Numbered from the stretch's first letter, positions 32,307 to 51,725 are shown. The stretch: 61,337 bases of DNA from an uncultured virus (IMG/VR IMGVR_UViG_3300013119_000533) (IMGVR_UViG_3300013119_000533:62001-123337), one strand, 5' to 3'. Notes: generated by a model not told the origin, from the sequence alone. A program made the numbers and translations.

Positions 32307-32310
32307 TATA

Positions 32311-32517
32311 CTAATCGCTTCCAACTGTACTATTTGTTTCATTCACATCCATAAGATGCGATGTATCAATAGTTGGAGGGTTTAATATAATAATCTCCTC
32401 GTTTTCACCCAACATTAAATCAAACCCCCTCAATACTGGGGTGATATCCGTTTGCTTCATTAGTGAGTCTTGTAGTGCCAACATAATTGCACCAAGTGCT
32501 TGATCAGATAATTTCAT
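32311..32517 (-). CDS. Hypothetical protein (68 aa)
   Basis: AGGAGG RBS, ATGA coupling with cysC. Confidence 0.75.
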   Translation of the reverse strand: MKLSDQALGAIMLALQDSLMKQTDITPVLRGFDLMLGENEEIIILNPPTIDTSHLMDVNETNSTVGSD

Positions 32518-33056
32518 TTTTTTCCTCCTGTTTCTTCTAAAATAAAATTTACTAAATTTTCTACCGACTGGTCAATAGTTTCCTTATTGGTGTCGATAAT
32601 TAAATCTGCGTTCTTTGGTTCTTGGAATGGATCCGAAATGCCCGTAAAGTTCGGGATATGCTCAGGATCCGTTTTAGGTAAAAGTGCCTTTCTGTACAAT
32701 CCTTTGGGATCTCTCTCAATTAAGGTTTCAATATCACACTTAACATAAACAATCCTAGACAGCGGGTTGTCAGACTTTACCTCTCTCCGTATATCATCAT
32801 AAGGGTTTATTGCAGACATTACACAGACCACTTTGTTGCGGGACAAAACCTTCCCAACAAACGAAAGTCTTCTGATATTAGTGTTCCTGTCCTCTTTTGA
32901 AAACCCAAGGTCCTTGCAGAGTCCCTCTCTATATTCGTCACCGTCGATAACCTCTACATTATAACCCATCTCTCTTAGGCGGGTTTGTGCTAAAAAAGTC
33001 ATTGTAGACTTACCTGCGCCACTCATGCCTGTCATCTGTACAAAAATACCACTCAT
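32514..33056 (-). CDS. cysC: Adenylyl-sulfate (APS) kinase
   Basis: TGMSGAGKST P-loop, IDGD..R, LGFSKEDRNTNIRR, RDPKGLY, FTGISDPFQEP. Confidence 0.95.
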   Translation of the reverse strand: MSGIFVQMTGMSGAGKSTMTFLAQTRLREMGYNVEVIDGDEYREGLCKDLGFSKEDRNTNIRRLSFVGKVLSRNKVVCVMSAINPYDDIRREVKSDNPLSRIVYVKCDIETLIERDPKGLYRKALLPKTDPEHIPNFTGISDPFQEPKNADLIIDTNKETIDQSVENLVNFILEETGGKK

Positions 33057-33057
33057 A

Positions 33058-33459
33058 TTATTCTCCCAAATACCTTATTACTAAATCATGTATAGATGAG
33101 TCGACATTCTCACGCCAAGACTCATTGCTCTCTTTGATGTTGTTTCTAATTCCAGTAGCGGAAATAAACCCAATGTTCTGTGGAGGTACGTGCTCGTTAA
33201 GTTCATACCCAACTCCGCGTCCCCAATTGACACTTTCAATGTCTGGGATACAAACTACCTCCACGTCCTGCTCACTGTATACTTTTTGTATCATTTCTAC
33301 TGTCTGTTCTGTAGTAAAAGGATTCTTTTCATCGGGCGGGATATCCCTAACTGCGATCAAGATTGGTTTACCCTCGCTTAGCTTCTGGTTGATTAACCAC
33401 TTGTGTCCATTGTGAAATGGTTGCCACCTGCCAACAAACATTGCTCTCTTATTGATCAT
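33058..33459 (-). CDS. Small HxGH nucleotidyltransferase (cytidylyltransferase/NMNAT-like; possible minimal sulfate adenylyltransferase)
   Basis: GRWQPFHNGH, NPF, ISATGIR motifs; directly upstream of cysC. Confidence 0.8.
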   Translation of the reverse strand: MINKRAMFVGRWQPFHNGHKWLINQKLSEGKPILIAVRDIPPDEKNPFTTEQTVEMIQKVYSEQDVEVVCIPDIESVNWGRGVGYELNEHVPPQNIGFISATGIRNNIKESNESWRENVDSSIHDLVIRYLGE

Positions 33460-34318
33460 CCGAAATTGCCCTACCTTTTAGTTTTTCCCAATCCTTCTCT
33501 GGTCTTACATTTAAATTTGTCTTCCATGCGCCCTTCAACACCGCAAGGTCCAATCCGATTGAATCCGCAAATGTCATAAACGCATTAATATCTTTAGGGA
33601 AACAAGACCCTCCGAAACCCATCTTACCATCTGGTCCTGGCACCTGTAAGTGTGAATCACCTACACGTCCGTCCGATACAAAACCTCTGACGGCTTTTTC
33701 CCAATTAATCGTTCCTGTCTTCTCTGCCACCATATTCATCTCGTTCATAAAAGAAACCTTGACGGCAAAAAACAAATTATTAAAATACTTTATCATCTCA
33801 GCTGTTTCATAATTCGTTGTTATGAAATTATTTCCAGCAAACCTCAAATTATACAATTGCTTGACCTTATTAACTGACAAGTTTCGCTGTCCATCATCCA
33901 AGTCTGTCTCAAAACCCAATACGATTCTAGACTGGTTTAGAAAATCAAACCTAGCATGCCGCTCAGTTAGAAACTCAGGATTAAAAACAATTTGCAAATT
34001 GGGATGCTTCCTCTTTAAACCCCTGGTTGTGCCTGGTACAACTGTTGACTTTAGCACAAATACAGTCTTACTGCTTTGCTTCTTGCACACCTCAACTGCG
34101 TCGAATACGGACTCAACGATAGAGAGATCGATTGTACCATCACTTTTCATAGGGGTTGGAACAGATATAAACACAACATCCGTATCATTAACAACCTCCT
34201 CCAAAGTATTAAAAGACTTATCAGGATCTTTGTCAAAAATCTTTACCTCCATATATGGAATAAAAGCATGTGCGATTGCGTTTCCGACAAAACCGTTCCC
34301 AATAATACCTAACTTCAT
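33449..34318 (-). CDS. ugd: UDP-glucose/GDP-mannose dehydrogenase family protein (short form)
   Basis: GIIGNGFVG, SVPTP, KSTVVPGTT, FNPEFL, AEMIKY, GFGGSCFPKD. Confidence 0.9.
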   Translation of the reverse strand: MKLGIIGNGFVGNAIAHAFIPYMEVKIFDKDPDKSFNTLEEVVNDTDVVFISVPTPMKSDGTIDLSIVESVFDAVEVCKKQSSKTVFVLKSTVVPGTTRGLKRKHPNLQIVFNPEFLTERHARFDFLNQSRIVLGFETDLDDGQRNLSVNKVKQLYNLRFAGNNFITTNYETAEMIKYFNNLFFAVKVSFMNEMNMVAEKTGTINWEKAVRGFVSDGRVGDSHLQVPGPDGKMGFGGSCFPKDINAFMTFADSIGLDLAVLKGAWKTNLNVRPEKDWEKLKGRAISDDQ

Positions 34319-35184
34319 GACAACTCCTCTTTCAAAGTCTTAAATACGGACTCTAGTCCCTTTCCCAATTTAACCTTGCTCTCCCATCCGTGTGATTTAA
34401 ATTTTGACAAATTCGCTTTAGTCAACATTACATCACCTACTCGGGCATCAACATACTTAAACTCTTGCTCTGGAAAATATTGTAACACAATTTCTTTCAT
34501 TTCATTCAAACTAATATTATCCCCAGACCCAATGTCATACCAGTGTCCCCACAAATCGTCCTTATCGATATTCTCAGCACAAAAAATGTTTGCAGAAACA
34601 ATGTCGTCGACGTGGGTCATATCGCGACGCTGTTCTCCGTCACCCGTAATGAATGGTACTTTACCTTCTTTGATATATTTTTTCCAATTACAAACAACTG
34701 TAGCATATTCACTATCAGCAACTTGATCATAAGAGTAAACATTAAAATACCTCAATGCAACAGTCTTCAACCCATACAATTCACTGTACAATAGAGTCTC
34801 CAATTCACCAACATATTTAGAAAGTGCATACGGACTAGCGGGACCATTACCATTCCCAACAACAGATGATGAACTGCTGTAGATTACAGGAATGCCCTCT
34901 CTTTTCGCCCAATGCAAGATATTAGTAGTCGAATTAATGTTATTATTCATAACCACCGTAGGATGCTTTACACTAAACGCAACTCTAGGAATTGCTGCAA
35001 AATGCACAACTACATCAATAGGGTTGTTTTGGTGGTTGATGTGTAATTCTTTTACCTTCTTTGATAGGTCAAACTCGCGATTCCCATTCATATCATACCC
35101 CACATAGGTATGTCCGAGTTCTTCCCACTTCTTAACGAAGTTTCCGCCGATGTATCCTTCGTGTCCCGTTACCAACGCTCTCAT
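34315..35184 (-). CDS. NAD-dependent nucleotide-sugar epimerase/dehydratase
   Basis: LVTGHEGYIG, SSSSV, SPYALSK (YxxxK), LRYFNVY, GDGEQRRDMTHVDD. Confidence 0.92.
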   Translation of the reverse strand: MRALVTGHEGYIGGNFVKKWEELGHTYVGYDMNGNREFDLSKKVKELHINHQNNPIDVVVHFAAIPRVAFSVKHPTVVMNNNINSTTNILHWAKREGIPVIYSSSSSVVGNGNGPASPYALSKYVGELETLLYSELYGLKTVALRYFNVYSYDQVADSEYATVVCNWKKYIKEGKVPFITGDGEQRRDMTHVDDIVSANIFCAENIDKDDLWGHWYDIGSGDNISLNEMKEIVLQYFPEQEFKYVDARVGDVMLTKANLSKFKSHGWESKVKLGKGLESVFKTLKEELS

Positions 35185-35867
35185 TTGTATTTTAAATCCT
35201 TTAAGTGTTTCTCAAATTTTGGTAGTTCATGATCTGAACACAAATCCTTGTATGCCTCTGGGTCTTTTCCTATGGCACGGCCGTCGACCTTTCTCTTTCC
35301 ATAATTTGTCTCGTTGCCTTTACCAGCGCGGCCTAACACTGAAACATTCCAATCAAAGACCCAATCCTCAACATAATCTGGATAGTCTTTAAAACTATGC
35401 TCTGATTCTAATCCAAATTTCTCTTCCATTTGGTGCTGGACTTTTTCGGGATCCGTTACGAGATCTTCATATTTAACCTCAAGATCAATCAAGTTGCCAA
35501 ACAGGACCTTGTTTCTTTGGTCCATGGACTCAATCCACCTCTTCGGTTTAACATAGTTCCCATCTGACAGGACAACATCTCTCCCATCTCTAACTACGTT
35601 TATAACTCTAATGTCTTCTTTTAGAATATCAGCTGCTTGAAATTGGAACTCTGGTACCAACACGTTACTTAAAAGTGCTGGTGGGTGTCTCTTTCCTATT
35701 GTAAATCCGCTCTTGCTTTCATGCTTGACGAACTTGTCAAAGTCCATCTCATGACCGTCGAAACCCTCTTTGTAAATAACTTCCGTATCTTTAAATGCGT
35801 AACACATCCTCAAAAGTAATGTGGTGCCCGACTTCGCACATCCTGTAATAAAAATCTTCTTACTCAT
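35181..35867 (-). CDS. Sulfotransferase family protein
   Basis: ITGCAKSGTTLL (5'-PSB), VVRDGRDVVLS (3'-PB), VKYEDLVTDP; start moved to ATG 35867 (GGGAG RBS). Confidence 0.88.
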   Translation of the reverse strand: MSKKIFITGCAKSGTTLLLRMCYAFKDTEVIYKEGFDGHEMDFDKFVKHESKSGFTIGKRHPPALLSNVLVPEFQFQAADILKEDIRVINVVRDGRDVVLSDGNYVKPKRWIESMDQRNKVLFGNLIDLEVKYEDLVTDPEKVQHQMEEKFGLESEHSFKDYPDYVEDWVFDWNVSVLGRAGKGNETNYGKRKVDGRAIGKDPEAYKDLCSDHELPKFEKHLKDLKYK

Positions 35868-36490
35868 TATATCTCCCAAGTCTTATACTCTGGTTCTTTG
35901 GTTTTATTCGTATTGTGCATTCTATATCTATAGAACGGAATTCTTAAGTGATGAATTTTATACTCTTGCCCTAATCTTTTTCTCAATTCCTCTTCTTCTC
36001 TATGGCGCATCTTACCATTATATCCACCCATCTGTAAGAAGGGATCTCTACGATACATTATACCACAAGATATGTTGTCTTGTTCTGCATATCTTCTCTC
36101 TAGTGTGTTCTCGAAGTTGTCTACCATGAGATAATCGCAAGACACGCAAAAGGCGTCATGATTTGCTTCAAGGTAAGTCTTCATTATATAACACATATCT
36201 GAATTTACATAATCATCGGCATCCACTCTAATGAAGAATTGTCCTTTACTATTTTGGACACCCACATTTGCAGCGACAGCAACACCACCGTTGGTCCCTG
36301 TACTTACAACCTTGACATCTTCTTTGAACGGTTGCAGTGCTGCAATTGAGCCATCAGTACTACAATCGTCGACGACAATAACTTCATGATTGACGTGAGA
36401 TTGGTTTAAACAACTCCTCACAGCGCGAGAGATATATTTTTCATAATTATAATTTGTTATAATGACAGACACATCAGGATTAGAACTCAC
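35867..36490 (-). CDS. Glycosyltransferase family 2
   Basis: VSVIITNYNY, VVDDCSTD, RVDADD, YRYRMH; GTG start at 36490 with GGAG RBS. Confidence 0.92.
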   Translation of the reverse strand: MSSNPDVSVIITNYNYEKYISRAVRSCLNQSHVNHEVIVVDDCSTDGSIAALQPFKEDVKVVSTGTNGGVAVAANVGVQNSKGQFFIRVDADDYVNSDMCYIMKTYLEANHDAFCVSCDYLMVDNFENTLERRYAEQDNISCGIMYRRDPFLQMGGYNGKMRHREEEELRKRLGQEYKIHHLRIPFYRYRMHNTNKTKEPEYKTWEI

Positions 36491-37193
36491 TGTTTTTCTC
36501 CATAATTTCAAATTGCTTAACAATGTTAACAAACTGTCTTAGGGAATCTTGGTCAAAAGATCCCAAATGTCCCCCCTCCAACTTGGTTTGAGAAAAGATA
36601 TTATTAGAATAGTGCTTCTCAAGTATCGTAGCACCGCGAGAATGGGCGCGTAGCGCCGCTCCGATGCCAATTGTATGATCACTATACCCCGAATACCCAG
36701 GACGCTTAAAATGGGGCATTTTTGCCAATTTTTGATCGTCTAAATATGTAGGATATTTGGATACACAAAACAAATACTCCACCTGTTCACTGTGCCCGAA
36801 AGGAAAATCTGCGAAATCATGCATTCCAGTTGAAACAATTGTTGGTTTGCCGTCTGACAATATCAATTCACAGAGGCGTGGATCCGACTTAGAAGTTCTG
36901 CTTGCAATCTTGTGTGTCTTTACACCCAAACTGTCTAACCACTCAAACCTCTCCTCATCAAAGACAGACGCCATGAATTCAATTCCTATATTATCACAGT
37001 ACTTTGCCAATGCATAAGCATCCTGAAAAGAGACGTCCCTATATTTCTTATTAGTTACTCCCAACAACTTCTCAGAATCCATCAGTTGGACTTTCACAGC
37101 GTCGGCGCCACCTTGAAAAGCACTTAGAGACATTCTCTTCAGTTCATCCAATGAACCATGATGTTGATTACAAAGATCAAGAATAATTTTCAC
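36480..37193 (-). CDS. neuB: NeuB-family nonulosonic acid synthase (no C-terminal SAF domain)
   Basis: NQHHGS, GADAVKVQ, SVFD, HKIAS, IVSTGM, CVSKYPT, GYSDHT, ILEKHY. Confidence 0.92.
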   Translation of the reverse strand: MKIILDLCNQHHGSLDELKRMSLSAFQGGADAVKVQLMDSEKLLGVTNKKYRDVSFQDAYALAKYCDNIGIEFMASVFDEERFEWLDSLGVKTHKIASRTSKSDPRLCELILSDGKPTIVSTGMHDFADFPFGHSEQVEYLFCVSKYPTYLDDQKLAKMPHFKRPGYSGYSDHTIGIGAALRAHSRGATILEKHYSNNIFSQTKLEGGHLGSFDQDSLRQFVNIVKQFEIMEKNSEF

Positions 37194-37857
37194 TTTTAAA
37201 TCTCCTTAAATTAATTTCAGCTCTTTCCACTATCTCAGGGTTCTTATCTTTATTTTGATATAGGGTACCCTTAGATTCTAGTTTCTTCTTATTTATCTTG
37301 TTTGCAATTATATCATCTATGTTTTCAGATAGCAAGCGAAATCCCGTCTGACAAGATTTATAAAACAAGGTATCTAAATTATCAAACCTATCTATGTCGA
37401 TATTGTCGTCTGCCACTATACTACCTGCATCGATTGTATTGTCTATATAATGAAGTGTAGCGCCAATTAAGTCTGGTTTATTATCGTACATTGCCCACAA
37501 AGAACTATCAACACCCCTATAATGCTCAACCAACCCAGTGTGAATATTAACACATCCATATTCAGGTAATTCAAATATTTCTTTTTTTAAAAGTGGGGCA
37601 CCAAACACAAATCCGACTTTAGGATCCAACTTAGCAAGAGACTGTAGGACAAAATTAGAATGCAGCTGGTGCTTAGAGCACCTCAATATGTTGGTTCTGT
37701 GCAACAAAGACAAGTCAGAATTGAAATAATCCGCTTCCTCTTGAGTTATGTGACCCTTGTCGATCACCACAACAAGTGGTATTTCCACCCTTTCATAGAG
37801 CGTCTCCAAGAACTTCATATGTCTTGGGTGGTTTGATGTAATTGCAAAACAACTCAT
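37177..37857 (-). CDS. Formyltransferase (10-formyl-THF dependent, sugar N-formyltransferase-like)
   Basis: VNIHTGLVEHYRG..W..GATLHYIDNTIDAGSI. Confidence 0.9.
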   Translation of the reverse strand: MSCFAITSNHPRHMKFLETLYERVEIPLVVVIDKGHITQEEADYFNSDLSLLHRTNILRCSKHQLHSNFVLQSLAKLDPKVGFVFGAPLLKKEIFELPEYGCVNIHTGLVEHYRGVDSSLWAMYDNKPDLIGATLHYIDNTIDAGSIVADDNIDIDRFDNLDTLFYKSCQTGFRLLSENIDDIIANKINKKKLESKGTLYQNKDKNPEIVERAEINLRRFKSENYS

Positions 37858-38543
37858 AACTTGTACGGTAATTTCCCTAATCTCTTAAATGCTTCCGCTC
37901 GACGGTTGGGGGCAATACTGTAACCTCTAACTAAAGATATGCCATTAAGATACTGCTCTATGCCTGGTATTACACCTCTCTGAGATGTATAGACTGCCAT
38001 GGCCTCACACTTTGTTATGTATTCCTTAGTTATATCTACAACAAAGTCTGGATTTTCAAAAGGATCCAATATCTCACACTGCAAGACCATATCCACTGTA
38101 TGTGTTGGTCCCAATTCTTCCATGATGTTTTCTGTGGATTTCCAACAAGACTCTTCGACGATATTCGATGTAATCCTGTGGTCTCTGTGTTTACATATAT
38201 CGCTATGAGTTATGACAATATTTGGTCGAACTTGTCTAATCTTTTGTATGACTTTGTGAAACGTTTGTTTATCATTCCTTATCTCTTGACAAGGAAGTCC
38301 CAAAGTTGAAACTTCTTTTACTCCAAGAATATGACATGCATATGTTGCTTCTTTCATTCTTACACTGGTTATGTCGTCTTGCAATCCAGATCCCTGTTCA
38401 TAACCCGTTGCGCCGTCAGTCATAAAACAAACGTGCACCTTTGCGCGCTGTTTTGACCATTTAGCAATCGTACCGCCACATCCAATCGTTTCGTCGTCCT
38501 GATGTGCGACGAAAACCAAAACCCTCTTTCCGCTCAATTCCAA
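37854..38543 (-). CDS. PIG-L/LmbE family N-deacetylase
   Basis: VAHQDDETIGCGG, TDG, R..EA, HRDH, AEAF. Confidence 0.92.
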   Translation of the reverse strand: MELSGKRVLVFVAHQDDETIGCGGTIAKWSKQRAKVHVCFMTDGATGYEQGSGLQDDITSVRMKEATYACHILGVKEVSTLGLPCQEIRNDKQTFHKVIQKIRQVRPNIVITHSDICKHRDHRITSNIVEESCWKSTENIMEELGPTHTVDMVLQCEILDPFENPDFVVDITKEYITKCEAMAVYTSQRGVIPGIEQYLNGISLVRGYSIAPNRRAEAFKRLGKLPYKL

Positions 38544-39100
38544 CGATCGTTCCTTCTCTTAATGAACTCTACATCATTCAAAGTATGTACATCGTGAATA
38601 TCACAAACATATACTCCACACTTTGTACTTAAGTCTTTTTGAAAGACATATCCCCGCTTCATTATCCTAAATGCTGCGTTCTGCATTAAGTCAGGAGATA
38701 CGCTTATTAATTCATTTCTATCATTCTCTATAAACGTCCTGATTGCGTCATCCAAAACCTCTCCAGTTATCTCTGGTGAATTCGCCTGTAATGAAATGTA
38801 GATATTTGCTTCGGCGTCATTGTCTTCCATGTAAAGTACCGCGCTGCGGATTGCTTCCATCTTATAGACATGATCTTGCGACAGTTCTGGGTCTCTCCTA
38901 TGCAGACTTGCTCCATACCTGGCAGCAACGGAAGAAACTTCTTTATCCTCTGTTGTGACCCAAACATCCGTTATTAATTCACTTGCCTGCGCAGCCTTAA
39001 TAGACCAAGCAAGCATAGGGTGTCCCCAGATTGGATAAATGTTTTTACGCGGCAATCTCTTGGATCCACCACGCGCAGGAATTATTGCTGTTATTTTCAT
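38534..39100 (-). CDS. neuA: Acylneuraminate cytidylyltransferase (CMP-nonulosonate synthetase)
   Basis: AIIPARGGSKRLPRKNI, WVTTED, LQANSP, DVHT..D. Confidence 0.9.
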   Translation of the reverse strand: MKITAIIPARGGSKRLPRKNIYPIWGHPMLAWSIKAAQASELITDVWVTTEDKEVSSVAARYGASLHRRDPELSQDHVYKMEAIRSAVLYMEDNDAEANIYISLQANSPEITGEVLDDAIRTFIENDRNELISVSPDLMQNAAFRIMKRGYVFQKDLSTKCGVYVCDIHDVHTLNDVEFIKRRNDRWN

Positions 39101-39101
39101 A

Positions 39102-40130: not shown

Positions 40131-40377
40131 TTTGACGTAACTCCCTCAAATCCTTTCTTATTTCGTCCACATCTTTTTGAAGGTTCTTCAATTCAGCAGT
40201 CATCAGTCCTATTTGAATTGTTAAGTTCTTGTTCTTATTCTTCTTTGCTTCGTGTGCTACAATTTCTGTAGTGATTGCGTTTGATTCAGCTGTACCTTTC
40301 ATGATCATAAAACCACTCAACACCAACAGCAATAGCAGCCCAATCGCTGCCAGGTCTACAACTTTAGATAACTTCAT
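40117..40377 (-). CDS. Small single-TM coiled-coil protein (86 aa)
   Basis: N-terminal hydrophobic helix and C-terminal heptads; ATGA coupling. Confidence 0.7.
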   Translation of the reverse strand: MKLSKVVDLAAIGLLLLLVLSGFMIMKGTAESNAITTEIVAHEAKKNKNKNLTIQIGLMTAELKNLQKDVDEIRKDLRELRQNEGN

Positions 40378-40985: not shown

Positions 40986-41111
40986 AAACAATCTCCTTTT
41001 TTATTATAAGTCCAAGTTGCATGCCGCTTTCAACAGATATTACCTCCGACTTTTAAATCAAATTTTTCAATAGATTGTTCTAAAAATAACTTTGTTGCAA
41101 AGTCCACTTAT

Positions 41112-44182: not shown

Positions 44183-45141
44183 TTTAAAAGATTGATGTCG
44201 TTCGTTACCATTTTTTTCACCAACTCTTGAAAGTTGACTTTAGGTTTCCATCCAAGATCTTGGGCAGCAAGAGAACTATTACCACGAAGAACGTCTACCT
44301 CGGCAGGTCTCATAAATCTTGGATCTTGCTTTATGTATCCTGACCAATCATCGATTCCGACGTGAGCGAAAGCGTGAGTTAAGAAGTCTTTAATAGAATG
44401 CGTTTCACCAGTTGCAATAACATAGTCGTTTGGACTATCTTGCTGTAACATTAACCACATCGCTTCAACATAGTCTGGGGCATATCCCCAATCTCTCTTC
44501 GCTTCCAGATTTCCTAATGAAATGTGATCAGCAAGTCCCAAGTGTATCCTCGCTACGCCGTCTGATATTTTACGTGTTACAAACTCTACCCCTCTTCTTT
44601 CCGATTCGTGATTGAACAGGATACCAGAACATGCAAAAATGTCGTACGACTCTCTGTAGTTCTTTGTAATCCAATGTCCATATAACTTGGCAACTCCATA
44701 GGGAGATCGTGGGTAGAATGGCGTCGTCTCTTTAGCGGGGTTTTCTATCATTCTCCCAAACATCTCAGAAGAACTTGCTTGATAAAATTTCACTGGTTTG
44801 CCGTATTCACGAATTGCTTCCAACATCCTTAATACACCAAGACCAGTCACTTCGCTAGTATATTCTGGGGTGTTCCAACTCTCACCTACAAAGGATTGTG
44901 CTGCTAAATTATAAACCTCGTGAGGATCACTCTCCTTCAAGCATCGTACTAATGAATTCTGATCCGTCATGTCTCCATTAACAAACGTTATCTTTCCCTC
45001 TAGGTGTTTTGTGTTTGTTCTATTCTTTGTGGAAGATCTGCGTTCAACGCCCCAGACCTGATATCCCTTAGATAGAAGGAGATCTGCAAGGTGCGATCCA
45101 TCCATTCCATTGATTCCTGTTATTAGTGCTCTACGAGACAT
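44179..45141 (-). CDS. gmd: GDP-mannose 4,6-dehydratase
   Basis: ALITGINGMDGSHLA, YNLAAQS, YQASSSEMFG, PRSPYGVAKLY, LFNHES.RRG..FVTRKI, RDWGYA. Confidence 0.97.
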   Translation of the reverse strand: MSRRALITGINGMDGSHLADLLLSKGYQVWGVERRSSTKNRTNTKHLEGKITFVNGDMTDQNSLVRCLKESDPHEVYNLAAQSFVGESWNTPEYTSEVTGLGVLRMLEAIREYGKPVKFYQASSSEMFGRMIENPAKETTPFYPRSPYGVAKLYGHWITKNYRESYDIFACSGILFNHESERRGVEFVTRKISDGVARIHLGLADHISLGNLEAKRDWGYAPDYVEAMWLMLQQDSPNDYVIATGETHSIKDFLTHAFAHVGIDDWSGYIKQDPRFMRPAEVDVLRGNSSLAAQDLGWKPKVNFQELVKKMVTNDINLLK

Positions 45142-46054
45142 CGTGAACCTCCTTAAATATTTTTATATACTCTTTCTTGTGTTTAATGATATCATACTTT
45201 TTAACTTTATTAAAGTTATTCTCTACATCTTCTACTGTTGGCAAGTATGTGTTTTTCGTTATATCAAAGACACAATTCTCACACAAAACCTCTTCTGATA
45301 ACCCCACAGGGTTAGATATCACTGGAACCTTCATTGCAGATGCTTCAAATAGCGCCTGTGGACCACCCTCATGGCGAGATGACACAACATATAGGTCACA
45401 GGCAGCGTACATCTTTTTAATGTCTTCTATGGGCGCAAGTTCGACATATTTGTAATCTATCCCAGCTGCTTGTAGTCTGTTTATTACGTATTGTCTGCGC
45501 CATCCCCCTAAAAGAACTAGCGTATCTTTATTTGCAATCTTCTCCACATAATCGCAAAAAAGGTCAGGGCCCTTTTCCAACTTCGGAGAAACCAAATCGC
45601 TGCCCTCCGTATCTCTCTGAAAAGACCCTATTACAAATCGATCTTTATCGATCTGAAGTTCGGATCTGCACTCCTGCTTATCCATAGGATTCCATAAACT
45701 CGAATTGAACCAATAACTTGCCACATTGACTGGTTTTTGAGTCAATTGCTTTACGAAGTGTTCGGTATGCTTATTTGGGACGTGGTATGCATCCACAAAT
45801 GTGTCCCTGATTAAGAATTCGTTTAAGTTTTGTTTATTAAACTTTTCAGGCACAATGTGATGAATAGTACAAACAACCTTTTTCGACTCTAAGTATTGCC
45901 GAGGAATCCTGGCCCACTGCCAAGGAGCAACAATCCACAAAACATCACACTCAGCAATATTTTCAGTAACCAAGTTTGGATTGTTCTCGTACCACTCCTT
46001 CCTTATCCTATCAACTATCCAGGATTCTTTTGGGTCGTTCAAATATACCTTCAC
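45131..46054 (-). CDS. Glycosyltransferase family 4
   Basis: EKGPD, YAACDLYVVSSRHEGGPQALFEA. Confidence 0.9.
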   Translation of the reverse strand: MKVYLNDPKESWIVDRIRKEWYENNPNLVTENIAECDVLWIVAPWQWARIPRQYLESKKVVCTIHHIVPEKFNKQNLNEFLIRDTFVDAYHVPNKHTEHFVKQLTQKPVNVASYWFNSSLWNPMDKQECRSELQIDKDRFVIGSFQRDTEGSDLVSPKLEKGPDLFCDYVEKIANKDTLVLLGGWRRQYVINRLQAAGIDYKYVELAPIEDIKKMYAACDLYVVSSRHEGGPQALFEASAMKVPVISNPVGLSEEVLCENCVFDITKNTYLPTVEDVENNFNKVKKYDIIKHKKEYIKIFKEVHDVS

Positions 46055-46758
46055 TTTGTAACTACCACAATCCCAGTGTCAGTAACTTTCCTTTCTTGTT
46101 CAAACAAATGGCCATGAAAGCAAACAAGTTCAGACTTAAACGTTGGATTATCGGCAAGGATCTGGTTTACAACTTCCTTTACTGCAAACTTGGAAGGGTG
46201 ATAGTCATCAAACAAAATCACGCCGCCATCTCTTACCATCTTATTTGCAACATTAAAGTCATTCATAATAACATTAACATCTGTATGGTTTCCATCAATA
46301 AACGCCAAATCAAACTCATCCTCCATTTCATCAATAAAAAATGGTACCTCTGATACGTGCTTGAATTTGATCTTTTCTTTTTCCTCAAATGGAATCAACT
46401 GGTATATATCCTCATTAGAGACAACGGCAGACCTGTATCCTATTGCTTCGTTCTTCTTTTGAAAGTGTGAAACAATATCGATCGTAATAATTTCTTCGAT
46501 AGTCTCCTCCAGTGCAACCGAAAAACAAGCAGTTCCTCGACCAGTCCCGATTTCGAAAAATCGTTCTGCCTTGAGGTGATTTGCCACTGCTTTAACTAGA
46601 AAACACTGCTCTGCGCCGAAAGACATATCGCCCTCGTTCTTGTTTGGGTTAACTCTTGTTTTGGTAAAGTGACATATTGTAGAAAGTTTATTTAGATCAT
46701 CTTTCCACTCGTAACCGATTTGCTTAAAGTAATCCTCAAGATTAGTTATCTTCATCAT
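46051..46758 (-). CDS. Class I SAM methyltransferase (Methyltransf_24-like)
   Basis: FFEIGTGRG, FDLAFIDGNH, GGVILFDDY. Confidence 0.9.
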   Translation of the reverse strand: MMKITNLEDYFKQIGYEWKDDLNKLSTICHFTKTRVNPNKNEGDMSFGAEQCFLVKAVANHLKAERFFEIGTGRGTACFSVALEETIEEIITIDIVSHFQKKNEAIGYRSAVVSNEDIYQLIPFEEKEKIKFKHVSEVPFFIDEMEDEFDLAFIDGNHTDVNVIMNDFNVANKMVRDGGVILFDDYHPSKFAVKEVVNQILADNPTFKSELVCFHGHLFEQERKVTDTGIVVVTK

Positions 46759-47639
46759 ATTTCTCCTAAAAATTTATTATATTGTGATGCGACATATGAC
46801 ATGTCTATATTCGTGTTGCATTCATTGTCTATCTTTCTTGTAAAATCTAATTGTGGAGGTTCATACAATTTCAATGGCCTGAAATCCCATTCTTCTTCCT
46901 CAATCAATGTTGCGCCGAGGGCAACCTCTCTTGTACCGCCTGTAGATGAACATATAACTTTACACCCACATGCAACTGCATCAACAACAACGTTGGGACA
47001 GTGATCTAGAAATGCCAAATGAATAAAATAATCGCTCTTCTTGTATAACGAAATTAAAGTAGGTATATCCAAGTTCCCGACATAATAAACCCTGTCTTGA
47101 ATTATCGGGTTGGAAACCTCACCTGCAACAATCAGACAGTCACGCTCCCCTGAATGTTCCAAGAAATACCTTATATTTTCTCCCAACCTCTTGTGAGGTC
47201 TCCAGCTGGATGCGCAAGACCATACCTTATCATAGTTATCAAATACAGAATGCTCTAGAGGTGCTACAGAATTAATAAACTCCAAGTCGGCACCATTTCT
47301 AATAACTTTATAATTGTTGTGATGTCCAAAGTATTCAAAACTCAATCTTTTATTGAACTCAGTCTGAAATACTACTCCGTGTGCCTGGCGATATGTCTTC
47401 AATATCGGACTATTCTGAGAGACGTAATCAAAATCGCTATTAAAATATATTCCATCCAACCTCTGAAAGGTTGGGAGGGATGTTGGTCGCATCAAACTAA
47501 TAAAAGATAGTTGTACATCAAACGGCATCGATTCTGAGAATGTGTCTCCTTGCTTTTTCATATATTTCTTAAGCTTGTTTGCGAAATGGTTTGGACCACT
47601 CGTAGATCCAACATTAACATTGTCTAAAAATATATTCAT
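46755..47639 (-). CDS. Glycosyltransferase family 4
   Basis: SGP..F, QRLDG, IRNG, HKR, DHCPNVVVDAVACG. Confidence 0.88.
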   Translation of the reverse strand: MNIFLDNVNVGSTSGPNHFANKLKKYMKKQGDTFSESMPFDVQLSFISLMRPTSLPTFQRLDGIYFNSDFDYVSQNSPILKTYRQAHGVVFQTEFNKRLSFEYFGHHNNYKVIRNGADLEFINSVAPLEHSVFDNYDKVWSCASSWRPHKRLGENIRYFLEHSGERDCLIVAGEVSNPIIQDRVYYVGNLDIPTLISLYKKSDYFIHLAFLDHCPNVVVDAVACGCKVICSSTGGTREVALGATLIEEEEWDFRPLKLYEPPQLDFTRKIDNECNTNIDMSYVASQYNKFLGEI

Positions 47640-48373
47640 AGACTTTCTAACTTTTCATACTGTGTTTTTTTGGATATGTGCGCCTCGATCCTCAATTGAT
47701 CATACCTATGTACGCGGTCGACGGATATCGGATTGTGCCTATTGTAAATATAAAGAATATCACTTATAAGTCTAACCCTGCCTTTTCCAGACATCTCAAC
47801 CATAGGATACATCATAGCGCGATCGAACGTGCACTTATAAAAATACCCATCCAAATCAAGCAAGTCCTTCTTTTTTATCTTGCAAAATAATTCTTTTCTA
47901 AAAGTTCTCAAATGAGAGAATGACCAAGGAGCAGTTCTTATATTCTGGTTCCAGTAATCGTCAGAGACACTTGGGGTTACAACCATATAGTTATCATTCT
48001 GAACATATGAACCAACAGTCATCCAGCAGTCTGGGTCTCTGTAGTGTTCGTCCAATTTATTTAAGACGGCAGTACCTGCAAGAGTATCATCACCATCCAA
48101 AGTAATGATTATGGTGCCATCTTTTGCTGCATGTATTTGCGTATAAAGATTATAGAGTGCCTTCATATTCTCTTCATTGGAGACAATCTTGAACTTCTTC
48201 TCTGATTTTGATAGTATATCTTTTGCTATTTCTAGCGTGTTGTCCGTAGAGCAATCATCGACATAAACGATATCATAATTATCATATTCTTGTCGCAGGG
48301 CAGAATTTAAATTCTTTTCTACCCACTGTTCACAGTTGTATGCGGGTATAACTATAGTGAAATGACTCTTCAT
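47636..48373 (-). CDS. Glycosyltransferase family 2
   Basis: IVIPAYN, YVDDCSTD, LDGDD, LYIYN. Confidence 0.92.
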   Translation of the reverse strand: MKSHFTIVIPAYNCEQWVEKNLNSALRQEYDNYDIVYVDDCSTDNTLEIAKDILSKSEKKFKIVSNEENMKALYNLYTQIHAAKDGTIIITLDGDDTLAGTAVLNKLDEHYRDPDCWMTVGSYVQNDNYMVVTPSVSDDYWNQNIRTAPWSFSHLRTFRKELFCKIKKKDLLDLDGYFYKCTFDRAMMYPMVEMSGKGRVRLISDILYIYNRHNPISVDRVHRYDQLRIEAHISKKTQYEKLESL

Positions 48374-50457
48374 GCAAAACTATTCTCCCAAAAGAAGGAT
48401 GGTCTTGACTTGAGATATTCGACTATCTCTTCATATGTGCCGTCAAACCAACTTTCTTCATGATGTTGAACTTTGTCATTCATATCCAACTCACAATCCA
48501 GAAGTTTTGCCTCGATAACCATTCGTGGGCAAGTATCCAGACCAGTGGGCTTGAAGCACAACCCTTTAGATTCTGCCATCTTTTCAAGGAATTGTTGATA
48601 AGGCAAGTTCCACAATACTTCGTAATCATATCCCTTATCTTTACAGTGTGACTCTGTTTCATTGAGTCCCTTCACCCAACTTCTGGATCCCAAGACGACC
48701 CATTTTTCATTCTTACTCTTTGCTCTATCTCGAACATGCTCGATGAATTCAAAGAACCCATCATTGAAAAGAGAAGACAGAACAAACATATTCTTGTTAG
48801 TTATACCAGGAAGACTGTCCGTATGCATCTTCATCTGATTGTCTGACATGAAAAAGGCCGATGATGCGGCATTAACGAAATCCGTCATAACCTGTCCCTT
48901 TTCTGTGTTCTTGTAATCACATGAAGCGCCTTCTACCATCTCGTACAGGGCAGGGTTTCTATGTTTGCAATATTTATAATCGAATTCTACAAAAGTATAA
49001 GAAATTGAAGATGACGAGACCATCTTTAGCATTTCATTCGATGCATTGGCGACGTTGCCGAAGATCCATTTAGCGTCCTTATTGTTCTCTAAAAGAAATT
49101 CAGATAACTCAGATGTTCGAACCTTTACCACTTTGTCAGACTCACAAGTTTCTACAAGAGTCTCCAAACTCAATTCGGCGCCGCCGACATAATCTTCAAC
49201 AAACATATCATTAACAAAAATAAATTCTGGTTTTGTTAACCACTTTTCTGGGATTAGAGTTTTTAGCATTTTATCCAAAATTTTGGGTAGTGCCAGTTCA
49301 GATCTTAGGTGTGCAGATAGTTGATCTGCCCAAGACTTGTACATTCCGTGATTAGAATAAACCTTTCTAATTTTTATCTTAAAGTCTCTCTCGCTTGGAT
49401 AACACCACATAGCTTCTGGGACAAGGATGTTGTCCCATACTGCTTCTTTTTGTATGTGCTTGAGTGAATAATCGACCTTTGCGAACAATGGTTTGTTTTT
49501 AATTTTTTTTGTCTTCTTATCTCTAGTAGGAGCATAAAGAAAATCCATGTGACCAGACCACCCTGGAGCAACTACAGGTAGTCCATTGTACGCTGCTTCA
49601 AATAGCGGTAACCCAAACCCTTCGCCGTGGGTTGCTGATATGATTGCTTTAATTTTTGAATTGTTATAGATCGCATTGATCTCATCATCAGTCATCTCAC
49701 CGTGAAGCAAATAGATGGAACACTTTCTTTCTCCAACATGCTTTAGTACTAGTTTTAATTGCTCCAAACAAGATTCGCGGTCTGGAGTGGAGTTCTTGGA
49801 AAAGTTAGTCTTTACCACCAACCCTACCTCGTCATCCTTAAACTCACTTACGAACCATCTAATTGTATCAATGAGGTTCTTTCTTATTCCCCATTGAGCA
49901 ATACAAAGAAAATTAAACTCATCCTTCAAATCCAAATCAATGCTAGTGTTACGTCCTTCGCGAACTGGGTAACTCACCACCTCTACTGGTGCGCCGCATC
50001 CGACACGGACCTGTTGGTTCGTTTCCTTATTTTCACCATCATAAAAAGTATTTTCAAAGACCCATTTTGAGAAGTTACTAGGTACAATCAGTTTATCCAT
50101 CTCGTACGACTTTTGAATCCATGCGGGTGCAACTTTCGTTGCTTCTATGCCAGCTGTCACACAAACAGCATATGGTGCCTTTCTGGAAAACTCACTTGGA
50201 ATCCCAACATGAATATGTACATCAAAATTCTTCTGATCGTCGGGTAGAGATTGAAATTTCGCAACCAGATTGTGGATCCACCGTGCTTCCTCTTCATTGT
50301 CCAACAACCACCCTGTGGCACCCCAATTTAGAGGATTCACATAAAGGTCTAAACTATCACCTCTTGCTTTGAGGGATTCTAAGACCAACCTCGTGTGCAC
50401 TCCATAACCAGACCTTGTGAGGGCTGGACCTTCGATTAATACTTTTATTCTACTCAT
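48370..50457 (-). CDS. Two-domain glycosyltransferase (GT4 + second GT-B-like domain)
   Basis: RSGYG, RKN, HGEGFGLPLFEA in the first domain; GGAE, KG, DTCPRMVIEAKL in the second; start at ATG 50457 (ATGA overlap). Confidence 0.88.
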   Translation of the reverse strand: MSRIKVLIEGPALTRSGYGVHTRLVLESLKARGDSLDLYVNPLNWGATGWLLDNEEEARWIHNLVAKFQSLPDDQKNFDVHIHVGIPSEFSRKAPYAVCVTAGIEATKVAPAWIQKSYEMDKLIVPSNFSKWVFENTFYDGENKETNQQVRVGCGAPVEVVSYPVREGRNTSIDLDLKDEFNFLCIAQWGIRKNLIDTIRWFVSEFKDDEVGLVVKTNFSKNSTPDRESCLEQLKLVLKHVGERKCSIYLLHGEMTDDEINAIYNNSKIKAIISATHGEGFGLPLFEAAYNGLPVVAPGWSGHMDFLYAPTRDKKTKKIKNKPLFAKVDYSLKHIQKEAVWDNILVPEAMWCYPSERDFKIKIRKVYSNHGMYKSWADQLSAHLRSELALPKILDKMLKTLIPEKWLTKPEFIFVNDMFVEDYVGGAELSLETLVETCESDKVVKVRTSELSEFLLENNKDAKWIFGNVANASNEMLKMVSSSSISYTFVEFDYKYCKHRNPALYEMVEGASCDYKNTEKGQVMTDFVNAASSAFFMSDNQMKMHTDSLPGITNKNMFVLSSLFNDGFFEFIEHVRDRAKSKNEKWVVLGSRSWVKGLNETESHCKDKGYDYEVLWNLPYQQFLEKMAESKGLCFKPTGLDTCPRMVIEAKLLDCELDMNDKVQHHEESWFDGTYEEIVEYLKSRPSFFWENSFA

Positions 50458-51725
50458 AGGACTTTCTGTAAACTCCACTGCTTTCTATCCATCGTATCCC
50501 AAGATCCATGCTTCTTGTGAACACCCTCTAGAAGGTTTCCCCAACTAGAGACATATTTTTCCATGCTATAATTATCTATAACGTGCTGGCGACCCTTCTT
50601 GCCCATCTCCAGGCGATCTTTCTTGGTCATCTTAAACATTTTCACCATGGCATCTACCAAGTCAGACCCTGATATTCTATCTTCATAGATCCAGGGAACC
50701 TCTTGAGACCCAATGATCGCCTTGGACGATGGTTCAATGCCGATACCAAACCAATCTTTTCCATTTGTTACTTGCTCCTGCAGTCCACCTGTCATATTAA
50801 CAATTATCGGGGTTTCTGTGGCAAGGGATTCAAGCGTGGCCAGTCCAAAACCTTCAGCATCAGAAATATTGATTGTACAATCTACACTATTATAAAGCAT
50901 CGACAATTGTTGAATTGATAGTTTCTGTGTCGACAACTTAAACTGATCGTCATCAAACCCCAGTTTTTCCTTAATTGCATCCAAATCCTGCCCGTTTGGA
51001 TCCTTTGGTTCCGTGTGCATGATCAAAGTTGCTTTATCTCTACCAACCTTATCAAGAAAATCATTAAACCAGAACATCAAAGAACCAGACTGCTTTCTTC
51101 TAGCGTTACGATTATTCCAAAAGAATGTGAATCTCTTATTTCCCTTGGAATCAATGCCGAGACCGTTTTCTTTTTTAAATGTCTTTATCAAGTCCGTGTC
51201 CTTAGTCTTGCTAAAAACAGTATCATTTACAGCGTGAGGCATGTGGTGACATTCTACTTCTGGAGCTACAGTTCTTACAATATCATCTGTAACTTTACTG
51301 ATTGTTGCAATGATATCATTTGATAAGTACCACTTTCTGTTAAATGTAGGATATGGCAAATTATCCCAAACATGGTAATAAACCAAAGGGGCGACAGATC
51401 TAACTTCATTGTCAATCTCCCACAGCCATCCCCAAAACCTTGGGTCCGTCATTATCCACACTATATCTGGTTTTTGTGCCTTTAGAAGTGCTCGGACTTG
51501 CTCCTGTGTACCATACCCATCAACTGGGTATATGATCCAATCGTCTCCGTATTCTTCTGTTCTGATTGGTTTGTATTCAGGGTGGCGGATGGCACCGCCG
51601 AAGCAAACAAACTCGAATTTTCCAGTTTGTAAAAGTCCTTCTATCATATATCTTGTTTGCGTTCCCACTCCAGATGGAGCAAGCGGACTATCCGCTAAAC
51701 AAAATACTTTTATTTTTTTCATCAA
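50454..51725 (-). CDS. Glycosyltransferase family 4
   Basis: PSGVG, PHAV, NRNARRKQ, AEGFGLATLESLA. Confidence 0.92.
   Translation of the reverse strand: MMKKIKVFCLADSPLAPSGVGTQTRYMIEGLLQTGKFEFVCFGGAIRHPEYKPIRTEEYGDDWIIYPVDGYGTQEQVRALLKAQKPDIVWIMTDPRFWGWLWEIDNEVRSVAPLVYYHVWDNLPYPTFNRKWYLSNDIIATISKVTDDIVRTVAPEVECHHMPHAVNDTVFSKTKDTDLIKTFKKENGLGIDSKGNKRFTFFWNNRNARRKQSGSLMFWFNDFLDKVGRDKATLIMHTEPKDPNGQDLDAIKEKLGFDDDQFKLSTQKLSIQQLSMLYNSVDCTINISDAEGFGLATLESLATETPIIVNMTGGLQEQVTNGKDWFGIGIEPSSKAIIGSQEVPWIYEDRISGSDLVDAMVKMFKMTKKDRLEMGKKGRQHVIDNYSMEKYVSSWGNLLEGVHKKHGSWDTMDRKQWSLQKVL

Follow-up and report, generated by a model that had tools for sequence, protein, structure and literature searches.

The window, a 61,337-nucleotide stretch of IMG/VR record IMGVR_UViG_3300013119_000533 (62001-123337), comes from an uncultured marine T4-like myovirus whose kin are Flavobacterium phage immuto and RM378. 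Its gp23-type capsid, portal, terminase, sheath and baseplate proteins are nearest to those of the RM378/immuto group, which we take to be the group labelled 'Far-T4'. Within the window a 19.2-kb block (32514-51725) is filled by 24 ORFs, all on the minus strand, as is every other feature located below. ORF junctions overlap with two exceptions, and the single true gap is about 120 bp. A sequence-only reading had described about 23 contiguous genes; the contiguity stands, the count is 24, and a 133-aa nucleotidyltransferase (33058-33459) had been overlooked.

The invariant first gene of the locus encodes core GT-B 1 (50454-51725, 423 aa, GT4 by Pfam). It is followed by a double glycosyltransferase (GT) of 702 aa (48370-50478), whose N-terminal half is core GT-B 2 and whose C-terminal half is a short variable GT4. 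GT4-type genes are also found at 46755-47639 (PF00534, E 1.5e-8), 45131-46054 (PF13692, E 1.5e-13) and 43274-44182 (PF13692, E 1.4e-7), so that the five GT4-type genes recognised earlier, one of them double, are borne out by Pfam/NCBIfam, HHalign and the relatives. GT2 genes lie at 47636-48373 (PF00535, E 3.7e-24) and 35867-36532 (PF00535, E 1.4e-29); a third proposed GT2 (41112-41903) has weak family support.

Enzymes for donor synthesis comprise Gmd, a GDP-mannose 4,6-dehydratase (44179-45141; TIGR01472, 427.8 bits against a cut-off of 415), a Ugd-like NDP-sugar dehydrogenase (33449-34318; PF00984 and PF03721, its C-terminal domain without match), an SDR-type NDP-sugar epimerase/dehydratase (34315-35184; PF01370, E 7.7e-42), a short NeuB-type nonulosonate synthase of 237 aa (36480-37193; PF03102, E 1.9e-34), a NeuA-type CMP-nonulosonate synthetase (38534-39100; PF02348, E 4.9e-24; best NCBIfam model PseF, below cut-off) and an APS kinase (32514-33056; TIGR00455, 168.4 bits against 138.7). 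NeuB and NeuA fall short of the equivalog cut-offs for Neu and Pse, and the nonulosonate is assigned as a class only. Tailoring enzymes are a SAM methyltransferase of the Methyltransf_24 family, probably a sugar O-methyltransferase (46051-46758; PF13578, E 1.9e-11), a PIG-L de-N-acetylase (37854-38543; PF02585), a DUF2334 deacetylase-like protein (42573-43274; PF10096, E 1e-14), an N-formyltransferase (37177-37857; PF00551, with ArnA and dTDP-amino-sugar formyltransferase models below cut-off) and a sulfotransferase (35181-35879; PF13469, E 7.3e-10). Pfam and NCBIfam thus agree with the earlier naming of Gmd, Ugd, the epimerase, NeuA/NeuB, the formyltransferase, the sulfotransferase, APS kinase and both deacetylases. 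By homology, the block encodes predicted donor synthesis, tailoring enzymes and 8-10 GT domains, and no export machinery. The predicted donors are a GDP-6-deoxy-keto sugar (Gmd), UDP-uronate (Ugd and epimerase), a CMP-nonulosonate (NeuB and NeuA) and PAPS (APS kinase), and the predicted modifications are methyl, de-N-acetyl, N-formyl and sulfate. The 133-aa protein belongs to the HIGH-family nucleotidyltransferases (PF01467). Its homologue adjoins APS kinase in all five loci that have one, and among longer homologues listed, 114 of 120 are fused to an APS kinase domain (PF01583). The two proteins are therefore likely to form a minimal PAPS synthase, in which the 133-aa part would serve as the ATP-sulfurylase half and supply APS.

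Several genes are less readily assigned. The protein at 41112-41903 is a divergent GT-A/GT2-like protein with an invariant CHND and a GC3 of 0.28; PF00535 is matched by 2 of 21 family members at E ~0.01, and a PDB search gave no match. The adjacent ORF (41887-42576; GC3 0.29 vs 0.38 for the block) begins with about 60 GT2-like residues, of which residues 7-65 share 37% identity with the beginning of the following gene, and continues as a 2OG-Fe(II) oxygenase; the oxygenase named earlier matches TIGR04324 below cut-off (E 5e-10), has a single homologue in all the loci fetched and sits in a chimeric ORF that is apparently a recombination scar. Of two proposed methyltransferase-like proteins, that with PF13578 stands, while the 205-aa product of 40374-40991 finds no support in Pfam, NCBIfam or HHalign and has one homologue, in the G002 cassette. 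An 86-aa ORF (40117-40377) has no homologue in the loci fetched. The 342-aa protein beside NeuA (39102-40130) had been called a GT-B transferase. The predicted GT-B fold agrees, but the transferase assignment is tentative: the top fold matches of its model (pLDDT 61) are UDP-GlcNAc 2-epimerases (Z 17.5, rmsd 4.1, 288 residues aligned), with the best glycosyltransferases about 1 Z lower (Z 16.3). It could be a nonulosonate transferase or a NeuC-like epimerase. No GT29, GT42 or Maf match was obtained in the source-phage allele, and the 342-aa gene moves together with the NeuA/NeuB module in G001, G002 and G015. PIG-L and the formyltransferase lie in the nonulosonate module of G000, G001 and G015, and both are missing from that of G002.

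The block is genuine and non-chimeric. The source record is linear and incomplete (CheckV 49%), and the two genes at 41112-42576 have low GC3, features that could suggest an assembly chimera or a passive host insert. However, a second record is identical over 19,900 of 19,900 bases, the left junction occurs on two further records, and contigs from a different study span most of the block with even depth and about 99% identity. The GC and GC3 of the block (0.388/0.379) match those of the core enzymes (0.383/0.391), and one anchor is shared across all relatives. A chimeric origin, which the earlier reading had named as its own refutation, is itself refuted for the whole block, and its chance is negligible. 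One contig from another study matches 42422-42945 and diverges afterwards, in agreement with the recombination scar in the chimeric ORF.

Orthologues of GT-B 1 were found in 49 IMG/VR loci, immuto, Mel-JY01 and RM378. GT-B 2 follows directly in 38 of the 49 loci, and the remaining 11 stop no more than 1.3 kb from GT-B 1; the RM378 partner gene is a weak match (E 1e-8). The C-terminal half of the 702-aa protein aligns with a 294-aa GT4 family (HHalign 95%), is also supported in Atlas, and has a stand-alone counterpart in many relatives. The best PDB sequence match of GT-B 1 is chlorovirus B736L (E 3.6e-8), which is also the sole PDB match of the GT-B 2 profile (E 5.4e-7). In fold, the GT-B 1 model (pLDDT 86.8) matches B736L and MshA equally well (both Z 35.4); MshA is a small-molecule enzyme, and this tie weighs against a virion acceptor.

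In 12 of 12 relatives the core pair anchors a variable cassette of 9-25 kb, and all 12 cassettes end at the same downstream border, formed by x68, a Zn-ribbon gene, TM102 and a late sigma-factor-like gene (31063-32517; phrog_234, E 9e-5). The cassettes of relatives include CST-I, GT29 and PF01973 domains, the last of which, in G006 only, we take to be the Maf flagellin-transferase domain. Nonulosonate, Kdo, GT9 and GT8 genes also occur in relatives. The source block is evidently one allele of a clade-wide locus, and it is unexceptional, as cassettes of 9-25 kb occupy the same site in relatives and large phage sugar clusters have already been published.

The sequence-only reading had emphasised that the cluster consists almost entirely of soluble enzymes without flippase, polymerase, ligase, ABC exporter or priming transferase, and both points were upheld. 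In a Kyte-Doolittle scan, the 86-aa ORF (2.48) was the only one of the 24 with a TM-like segment, and none of 224 cassette ORFs has three or more. Export families were searched in five records (the source, an overlapping 147-kb record and three complete relatives), with about 20 kb of the source genome lying outside. Wzx, Wzy/WaaL, ABC2, GtrA, MraY-type and Bac_transf families matched in none of the five, with controls positive in 8-14 of 14 genomes: PF01943, PF04932 and PF01061 (flippase, polymerase/ligase and ABC exporter) in 13, 9 and 14, PF02397 and PF00953 (undecaprenyl-phosphate priming) in 9 and 12, and PF04138 (GtrA) in 8. The block contains no polytopic ORF, and the match of its GT2s to a GtrB-like PHROG is limited to roughly the first 120 residues. 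The locus is thus a set of virus-encoded soluble GTs without lipid-carrier machinery. Soluble enzymes could nevertheless borrow host flippases.

Such borrowing is central to the interpretation published for P-SSM2 (PMC1079782) and pelagimyophages (PMC7029224), host-surface remodelling, in which the enzymes would modify host lipid-linked intermediates or LOS core in the cytoplasm, host flippases and ligases would export the product, and superinfection would be blocked. The LPS- or capsule-type sugars (nonulosonates, Kdo, GT9 and GT8 in relatives) and the hypervariability, which suits a receptor arms race, agree with it. So does a perfect sigma-70-type site, TTGACA-17-TATAAT (52681-52709, 12/12), upstream of a PD-(D/E)XK nuclease gene and the cassette; 9 of 42 loci have a site with at least 11 of 12 matches, against 0.4 expected, and early expression is therefore possible. 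An unassigned 112-aa protein with 3-4 TM segments, conserved in five marine records and in immuto (annotated EmrE-like there), might also be cited, but its gene is distant from the locus and it gave no match to a flippase family. Remodelling lacks a priming, flipping or ligating gene, and leaves unexplained both the retention of the core pair in RM378 and in marine phages alike, irrespective of host, and the motif excess in structural proteins described below. We regard it as unlikely.

Hypermodification of phage DNA, with sugars placed on modified bases, is highly improbable. DNA-glycosylating phage GTs are known (cited in PMC12619734), and the block follows the nuclease gene and the sigma-70-type site and includes a 2OG-Fe(II) oxygenase. 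However, that oxygenase belongs to a carbohydrate-cluster family and has the single homologue noted above, and a thymidylate-synthase-family hydroxymethylase (PF00303) was found in none of the five records (controls 10 of 14). TET/JBP (PF12851) matched in none of the five and likewise in no control genome. The source genome avoids CCGG (O/E 0.07), G001 avoids AGCT (0.01) and RM378 avoids CTAG and GGCC (0.00); in G003, G004 and G005 the lowest 4-mer values are 0.79-0.92, which is not strong avoidance, and the restriction-site argument is therefore not general. Two DNA methyltransferases of ordinary type are encoded in the early arm of the source phage. Immuto carries both the pair and a cassette, and the reported LC-MS of its DNA lists only dA, dC, dT and the deazaguanine fdPreQ1, with no glycosylated nucleosides (PMC10516641).

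Evidence on the acceptor comes from the proteome, in which the two most enriched tripeptides are SGS (65 vs 20.6 expected) and TGS (44 vs 17.1). The excess of [ST]GS is confined to structural proteins (100 vs 29.3, 3.4-fold), with none in non-structural proteins (9 vs 8.4) or the early arm (9 vs 9.2). In 21 sheaths, 110 motifs fall in the variable middle (25.0 expected) and 0 in the conserved core (5.1 expected); in 78 capsid proteins, 135 fall in the insertion region (39.0 expected), 77 outside the single conserved column. In T4, the I domain is described as forming the bumps on the capsid surface (PMC9958956). In the window, candidate acceptors are a 4178-aa baseplate-region protein (most of it at 1-12450, its gene ending 86 bp before the window; 24 motifs vs 6.3), a 771-aa baseplate-region protein (12453-14768; 10 vs 1.4) and a 1274-aa tail-fibre-like protein with phrog tail fibre matches (57444-61268; 6 vs 2.2). 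The co-occurrence check proposed earlier was carried out: the [ST]GS ratio is 1.9-2.9 in 8 of 8 genomes with the GT-B pair and 0.67-1.53 in five controls, which are partial genomes and include one with GT-B 1 and no partner; the link between motif and pair concerns one clade. P-HM2, without the pair, still has SGS at 45 vs 25, and there is no excess in the parts read of some relatives (G001 sheath 1 vs 1.1; L139 3 vs 3.8; L110 5 vs 4.0).

The motif context, hydrophobic-S-G-S-hydrophobic, may simply be a beta-turn. The pair or cassette might then glycosylate another cytoplasmic target, such as host proteins, small molecules or defence signals, and the excess would be a habit of the clade's beta-rich structural proteins. 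The fold tie with MshA/BshA-type small-molecule GT4s and weak GT4-conflict matches, below cut-off, are in keeping with this proposal. It is distinctly unlikely, as sulfate, methyl and nonulosonate in a branched set of donors suit a surface glycan, no motif occurs in the sheaths of T4 and P-HM2, and the sheath regions with the [ST]GS excess show little excess of the reversed order, SGT/TGT (29 vs 21.8).

The best reading, which we consider probable, is lipid-carrier-free cytoplasmic O-glycosylation of the phage's own virion. Cytoplasmic assembly on virion proteins had been proposed from the sequence. That proposal is partly borne out and draws comparative support from the motif distribution, the promoter motif of structural genes, restriction-site avoidance and immuto DNA, with the target putative and host flippases possible. 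A viral GT as best PDB sequence match of both core enzymes also favours it, although the acceptor of B736L is given as not established (PMC9614988). The promoter motif, CTAATTA, is a candidate late promoter 30 nt before phoH (55099-55105), at the head of a gapless run phoH-x98-M90-x139-nuclease-cassette. Of 39 loci, 28 have it before phoH, where 1.8 would be expected; the sheath gene has it in 22 of 24 cases and the tube gene in 8 of 12. Late in infection, the conserved GT-B pair, with GT-B 1 as candidate priming enzyme, would act on capsid, sheath, neck, baseplate and fibre proteins, adding the first sugar or sugars to the Ser/Thr of hydrophobic-[ST]-G-S motifs where these proteins are exposed and variable. 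The swappable downstream GTs would lengthen and cap the chain, giving here a methylated, sulfated anionic glycan that probably bears an N-formyl-nonulosonate; a cassette swap would alter the virion surface 'serotype'. A more specific version, which we put forward tentatively and would not yet back, is that a widespread aquatic clade practises sequon-directed O-glycosylation, in which the B736L-related pair reads internal [ST]-G-S on virion domains that face outward, and exchangeable cassettes give strain-specific coats, here sulfated and capped by N-formyl nonulosonic acid, with PAPS from the two-part minimal synthase. If true, it would represent the first case of a bacteriophage with a sialic-acid-like, sulfated glycocalyx, would amount to a 'serotype' system of phages, and would offer a small and portable tool for cytoplasmic O-glycosylation.

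Among known systems, mycobacteriophages are also tailed phages that glycosylate capsid and tail proteins with their own soluble GTs (Freeman et al. 2023, as summarised in PMC12619734 and PMC10877033). The sites summarised there are C-termini of capsid and tail-tube subunits, whereas the source phage has many candidate internal [ST]GS sites and a full donor and tailoring set, with attachment predicted. Giant viruses likewise group soluble sugar and GT genes, with clade-specific swapping and, in some, sulfate enzymes: the account in PMC9614988 includes clade-specific Mimivirus clusters of 6-33 genes, a 38-kb Kdo cluster in CroV and chlorovirus GTs such as B736L and A546L. Their hosts are eukaryotic and their glycans, capsid N-glycan or fibril polysaccharides, are shown chemically, whereas the glycan here is predicted. 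In flagellin glycosylation, Maf and FlmG are described as soluble enzymes that transfer nonulosonates in the cytoplasm, without an OTase, to Ser/Thr of a structural polymer subunit, as proposed here (PMC7591256); the source allele differs in having neither Maf nor FlmG and in its predicted multi-sugar chain. The 24-gene 'LPS' cluster of P-SSM2 (PMC1079782) and the host recognition clusters of pelagimyophages (PMC7029224) are, like the source block, large hypervariable sugar islands of lytic marine myoviruses; the cited passages describe no conserved two-GT anchor or acceptor motif, and the anchor GT is absent from P-HM2. In the cultured relatives immuto 2-6A, Mel-JY01 and RM378 the GT genes are annotated singly, in records that give no function, and the cassettes of immuto and Mel-JY01 are their own, shorter and without annotated NeuA/NeuB or sulfation genes; in all three phages the same anchor pair lies right after a nuclease-type gene.

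The glycan-enzyme cassette at 32514-51725 on the minus strand of the window is real, intact and typical of its clade. It is filled by 24 ORFs with overlapping or abutting ends, where the sequence-only reading had counted about 23 contiguous genes, and nearly every enzyme class named in that reading is confirmed by Pfam or NCBIfam. Two assignments did not hold up equally: the second methyltransferase (205 aa) finds no support from Pfam, NCBIfam or HHalign, and the third GT2 (263 aa) is weak, with only 2 of 21 family members matching at E ~0.01, no placement by HHalign and no PDB chain matched by its profile. The 342-aa protein read as a GT-B transferase (39102-40130) has the GT-B fold (model pLDDT 61), and the scores of UDP-GlcNAc 2-epimerases (Z 17.5; rmsd 4.1 over 288 aligned positions) and of transferases (Z 16.3) nearly tie; it may transfer the nonulosonate or supply the NeuC-like step that is otherwise missing. 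A 133-aa HIGH-family nucleotidyltransferase (33058-33459), absent from the earlier gene list, adjoins the APS kinase (32514-33056) in all five loci with a homologue. Its longer homologues, some of them named from bacteria (Saprospiraceae, Acidobacteriota), carry an APS-kinase domain in 114 of the 120 listed, out of 215 found. From these sequences we infer that the protein would act as ATP sulfurylase and so form one half of a minimal PAPS synthase, and NMNAT-like HIGH proteins are possibly an unrecognised minimal ATP sulfurylase family. A TM-like segment occurs in one 86-aa ORF of the block. The claimed absence of export and priming genes is borne out, as the six families sought are found in none of five records (three complete) and the controls matched in 8-14 of 14 genomes. 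Judged by homology, the block provides donors, tailoring enzymes and transferases and lacks export genes.

The virus record is linear and 123,337 bp long, and the window is its final 61 kb. Nearly all genes of the window lie on the minus strand, and their products include a gp23-type capsid protein, portal, terminase, sheath, tube and baseplate. The capsid protein is nearest to those of Flavobacterium phage immuto (46%), Microcystis phage Mel-JY01 (42%), an unannotated 484-kb record and Rhodothermus phage RM378, which we take to be the group called 'Far-T4'. The phage's own record (G000) is incomplete; another record, overlapping it and identical in the capsid gene, extends it by ~50 kb, complete relatives are 185-193 kb, and one block protein is present on a 194.7-kb contig as well. 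An alternative genetic code is unnecessary, the apparently empty first 12 kb being one 4178-aa gene that extends past the window edge. The phage also encodes DNA polymerase III alpha, a short family-A polymerase fragment, GroEL/GroES, ThyX, IMPDH, RecA and two ClpP-like proteins (stretches L225:15182-18604, L004:2820-3938 and L225:6736-8313). A GDSL-like esterase (PF13472) and an M23-like peptidase, probably baseplate-borne or lysis enzymes, open the baseplate module (28048-30758). The sole plus-strand gene (55312-56061) codes for a trypsin-like serine protease bearing a signal or TM segment and is kept just upstream of phoH in many relatives. The sequencing runs that contain the block are marine metagenomes, and none of those listed is an RNA run. 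Twelve TTGACA/TATAAT sites (at least 11 of 12 matches), all on the coding strand, are found in the early arm (L224-L226), and AGGAG ribosome sites precede many genes; given the promoter and Shine-Dalgarno habits of Bacteroidota, these sites disfavour a Bacteroidota host, unlike that of immuto.

The first glycosyltransferase of the core pair (423 aa, 50454-51725) has orthologues in 49 IMG/VR loci, some of them duplicates, always behind phoH and a PD-(D/E)XK nuclease. The N-half of the 702-aa double glycosyltransferase (48370-50478) follows it in 38 of the 49, and the remaining 11 end within 1.3 kb. The pair is also present in immuto, Mel-JY01 and RM378; RM378 has the pair alone, its second gene being a weak match. 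In all 12 relatives read through, the cassette behind the pair has a common end point, the small genes that precede the late sigma factor; these cassettes span 9.3-25.1 kb and 12-29 ORFs, so that 19 kb is ordinary for the clade, and 8 of the 12 contain NeuB. A domain scan of 128 of their 224 ORFs, mostly ones without a match to the window, identified aminotransferases, methyltransferases, GT2/8/9/10/11/29/47, CST-I, a KdsA-like synthase, a carbamoyltransferase and PF01973 domains. No export family is found among the 128, and the sole membrane-type family comprises three small Mpo1-like proteins; none of the 224 ORFs has at least three TM-like segments, and 11 have one or two. Of the four copies of the NeuA/NeuB module, three include PIG-L together with the formyltransferase and one has neither, which suggests an acetyl-to-formyl swap.

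Chlorovirus B736L is the best PDB sequence match of both core glycosyltransferases, and by fold B736L and MshA tie at Z 35.4; the available text of PMC9614988 gives no known acceptor for B736L. The core pair might, by analogy, act as a GtfA/GtfB-like heterodimer, an idea compatible with the lack of GtfA among the best 50 fold matches listed. Among the best 150 representatives of core-glycosyltransferase homologues, 15 (within P0002-P0068; 785-911 aa) are split at or beside the catalytic EGFGL motif by an insert of 390-450 residues. In the six examined the insert opens with Cys and closes with His-Asn, the pattern of an intein. There seem to be two insertion sites, fitting an essential gene. 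In the Mel-JY01 record the first core glycosyltransferase is divided into two ORFs. The 484-kb phage LR756508 (L223:5432-19164) carries this first gene with a run of ~16 short genes, NeuA-like and methyltransferase-like ones among them, and no partner. A conserved zinc-metallopeptidase-like gene (52821-53510), with weak M90 and ATLF matches below cut-off, lies in the operon upstream of the cassette and is found in most relatives.

The possibility that the block is an assembly chimera or host insert, named earlier as something read coverage might reveal, is ruled out by three lines of evidence, and a chimera is scarcely credible. A second record is identical to the window over 19,900 of 19,900 bases and two further records carry the left junction, though all three may share their origin with the window. 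Most of the block is also matched by contigs of another study (~99% identity, depth near 9), and block GC and GC3 equal the values of the core enzymes. Runs X6 and X8 cover the block patchily, and X5 has almost no cover at ~41.0-42.4 kb. One recent insert is visible in the sequence at 41112-42576, as judged from two genes with GC3 of 0.28-0.29, an oxygenase whose first ~60 residues are paralogous to the GT2-like gene beside it, and divergence of a contig from the other study at 42422.

The motif CTA[AT]TTA, read here as a putative late promoter, precedes only 13-32 of 207-221 genes per genome. It lies upstream of phoH in 28 of 39 loci (1.8 expected), of the sheath gene in 22 of 24 and of the tube gene in 8 of 12. 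It is not enriched directly before the glycosyltransferase (0/41), capsid gene (2/57) or nuclease (1/41). In the window it stands at 55099-55105 (minus strand) before phoH, which opens a gapless run leading into the cassette. A perfect sigma-70-type site (52681-52709) lies upstream of the nuclease, and 9 of 42 loci have one with at least 11 of 12 matches (0.4 expected), so early expression of the cassette is conceivable too.

With the composition of each protein as the baseline, SGS and TGS exceed expectation more than any other tripeptides of the phage proteome. The excess of Ser/Thr-Gly-Ser ([ST]GS) is confined to structural proteins (100 observed vs 29.3 expected); the other proteins give 9 vs 8.4 and the early arm 9 vs 9.2. 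Across 21 sheaths the variable middle holds 110 vs 25.0 and the conserved last 340 residues 0 vs 5.1, and the reversed SGT/TGT amounts to 29 vs 21.8. In 78 capsid proteins the insertion region holds 135 vs 39.0 (58 in one column, 77 scattered) and the core 34 vs 21.6; this region, its boundaries approximate, aligns across the part of T4 gp23 containing the I domain, which is described in PMC9958956 as forming surface bumps. On the co-occurrence check proposed by the sequence-only reading, the motif ratio is 1.9-2.9 in all eight genomes with the core pair, and all positives belong to one clade. Control genomes, read over 80-140 kb each, give 0.67 (T4), 1.30 (P-HM2), 1.46 (XacN1), 1.28 (LR756511) and 1.53 (LR756508). 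The last of these, with first gene and cassette and no partner, has 0 motifs in two sheaths and no clear excess in the 100 kb read. Cultured immuto 2-6A shares the core pair and has SGS at 65 vs 24; in Mel-JY01 (L002, L184-L192) SGT (104 vs 23) ranks above SGS, which may reflect a drift of the motif to [ST]G[ST] from one lineage to another. Counting against a link between motif and pair are the single clade, SGS at 45 vs 25 in P-HM2, relatives free of excess (the sheath of G001, 1 vs 1.1; stretches L139, 3 vs 3.8, and L110, 5 vs 4.0) and a context, hydrophobic on either side, that is compatible with a beta-turn too.

The best reading, held as probable, is O-glycosylation of the virion in the cytoplasm. 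The enzyme set and the lack of export genes stand on homology and fit the earlier proposal of cytoplasmic glycan assembly on virion proteins; the steps of assembly and attachment are the conjectural part. While virion subunits are still in the cytoplasm, the core pair would start a glycan on Ser/Thr of their [ST]GS motifs, and the variable glycosyltransferases would extend it into a methylated, sulfated, nonulosonate-capped chain. Some other cytoplasmic target is improbable. Soluble glycosyltransferases are able to act on host lipid intermediates, and remodelling of the host surface is for that reason conceivable, if unlikely; it accounts for neither the motif nor the fixed pair. Published accounts of the sugar clusters of P-SSM2 (PMC1079782) and of pelagimyophages (PMC7029224) present them as host-surface modification. 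A conserved 112-aa membrane protein (L225:4529-4867, record G016; homologues in G001, G003, G004, G005 and immuto gene 52) has 3-4 TM segments and an EmrE-like annotation in immuto; it was considered as a GtrA/EmrE-type flippase and rejected, with no family or PDB match in Pfam, NCBIfam or PDB. DNA is unlikely to be the target, and its probability is very low. No hydroxymethylase family was found in the five records, and the early arm (48 of 82 ORFs scanned) holds two ordinary methyltransferases; the TET/JBP search, with no match in the records or in any control genome, carries no weight either way. CCGG is nearly absent from the phage genome (O/E 0.07), as are AGCT from G001 (0.01) and CTAG and GGCC from RM378 (0.00), and relatives G003-G005 lack any comparable depletion; such losses of single 4-bp palindromes differ from strain to strain and may reflect each host's restriction system. 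For immuto DNA, the available text of PMC10516641 lists dA, dC, dT and fdPreQ1 only.

In the literature searched, mostly open-access, no description was found of an anchored pair with swappable cassette and internal motif, nor any paper joining 'Far-T4' with glycosyltransferase. If virion glycosylation is right, virome sugar genes now classed as host-directed auxiliary metabolic genes would need re-reading, and virions would have a diversity like that of bacterial serotypes, which could influence adsorption, particle stability and predation. Small soluble sialyl-, fucosyl- and sulfo-transferases can also be drawn from the cassettes. The separate elements have known counterparts, as reported in the available texts: phage virion glycosylation (Freeman 2023, via PMC12619734 and PMC10877033), giant-virus glycogene clusters (PMC9614988), cytoplasmic flagellin glycosylation (PMC7591256) and large sugar clusters of marine myoviruses (P-SSM2, PMC1079782; pelagimyophages, PMC7029224). 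Glycosylation of tailed-phage virions would, on the same condition, extend beyond mycobacteriophages to an abundant lineage of marine and fresh waters, as one of its core traits.
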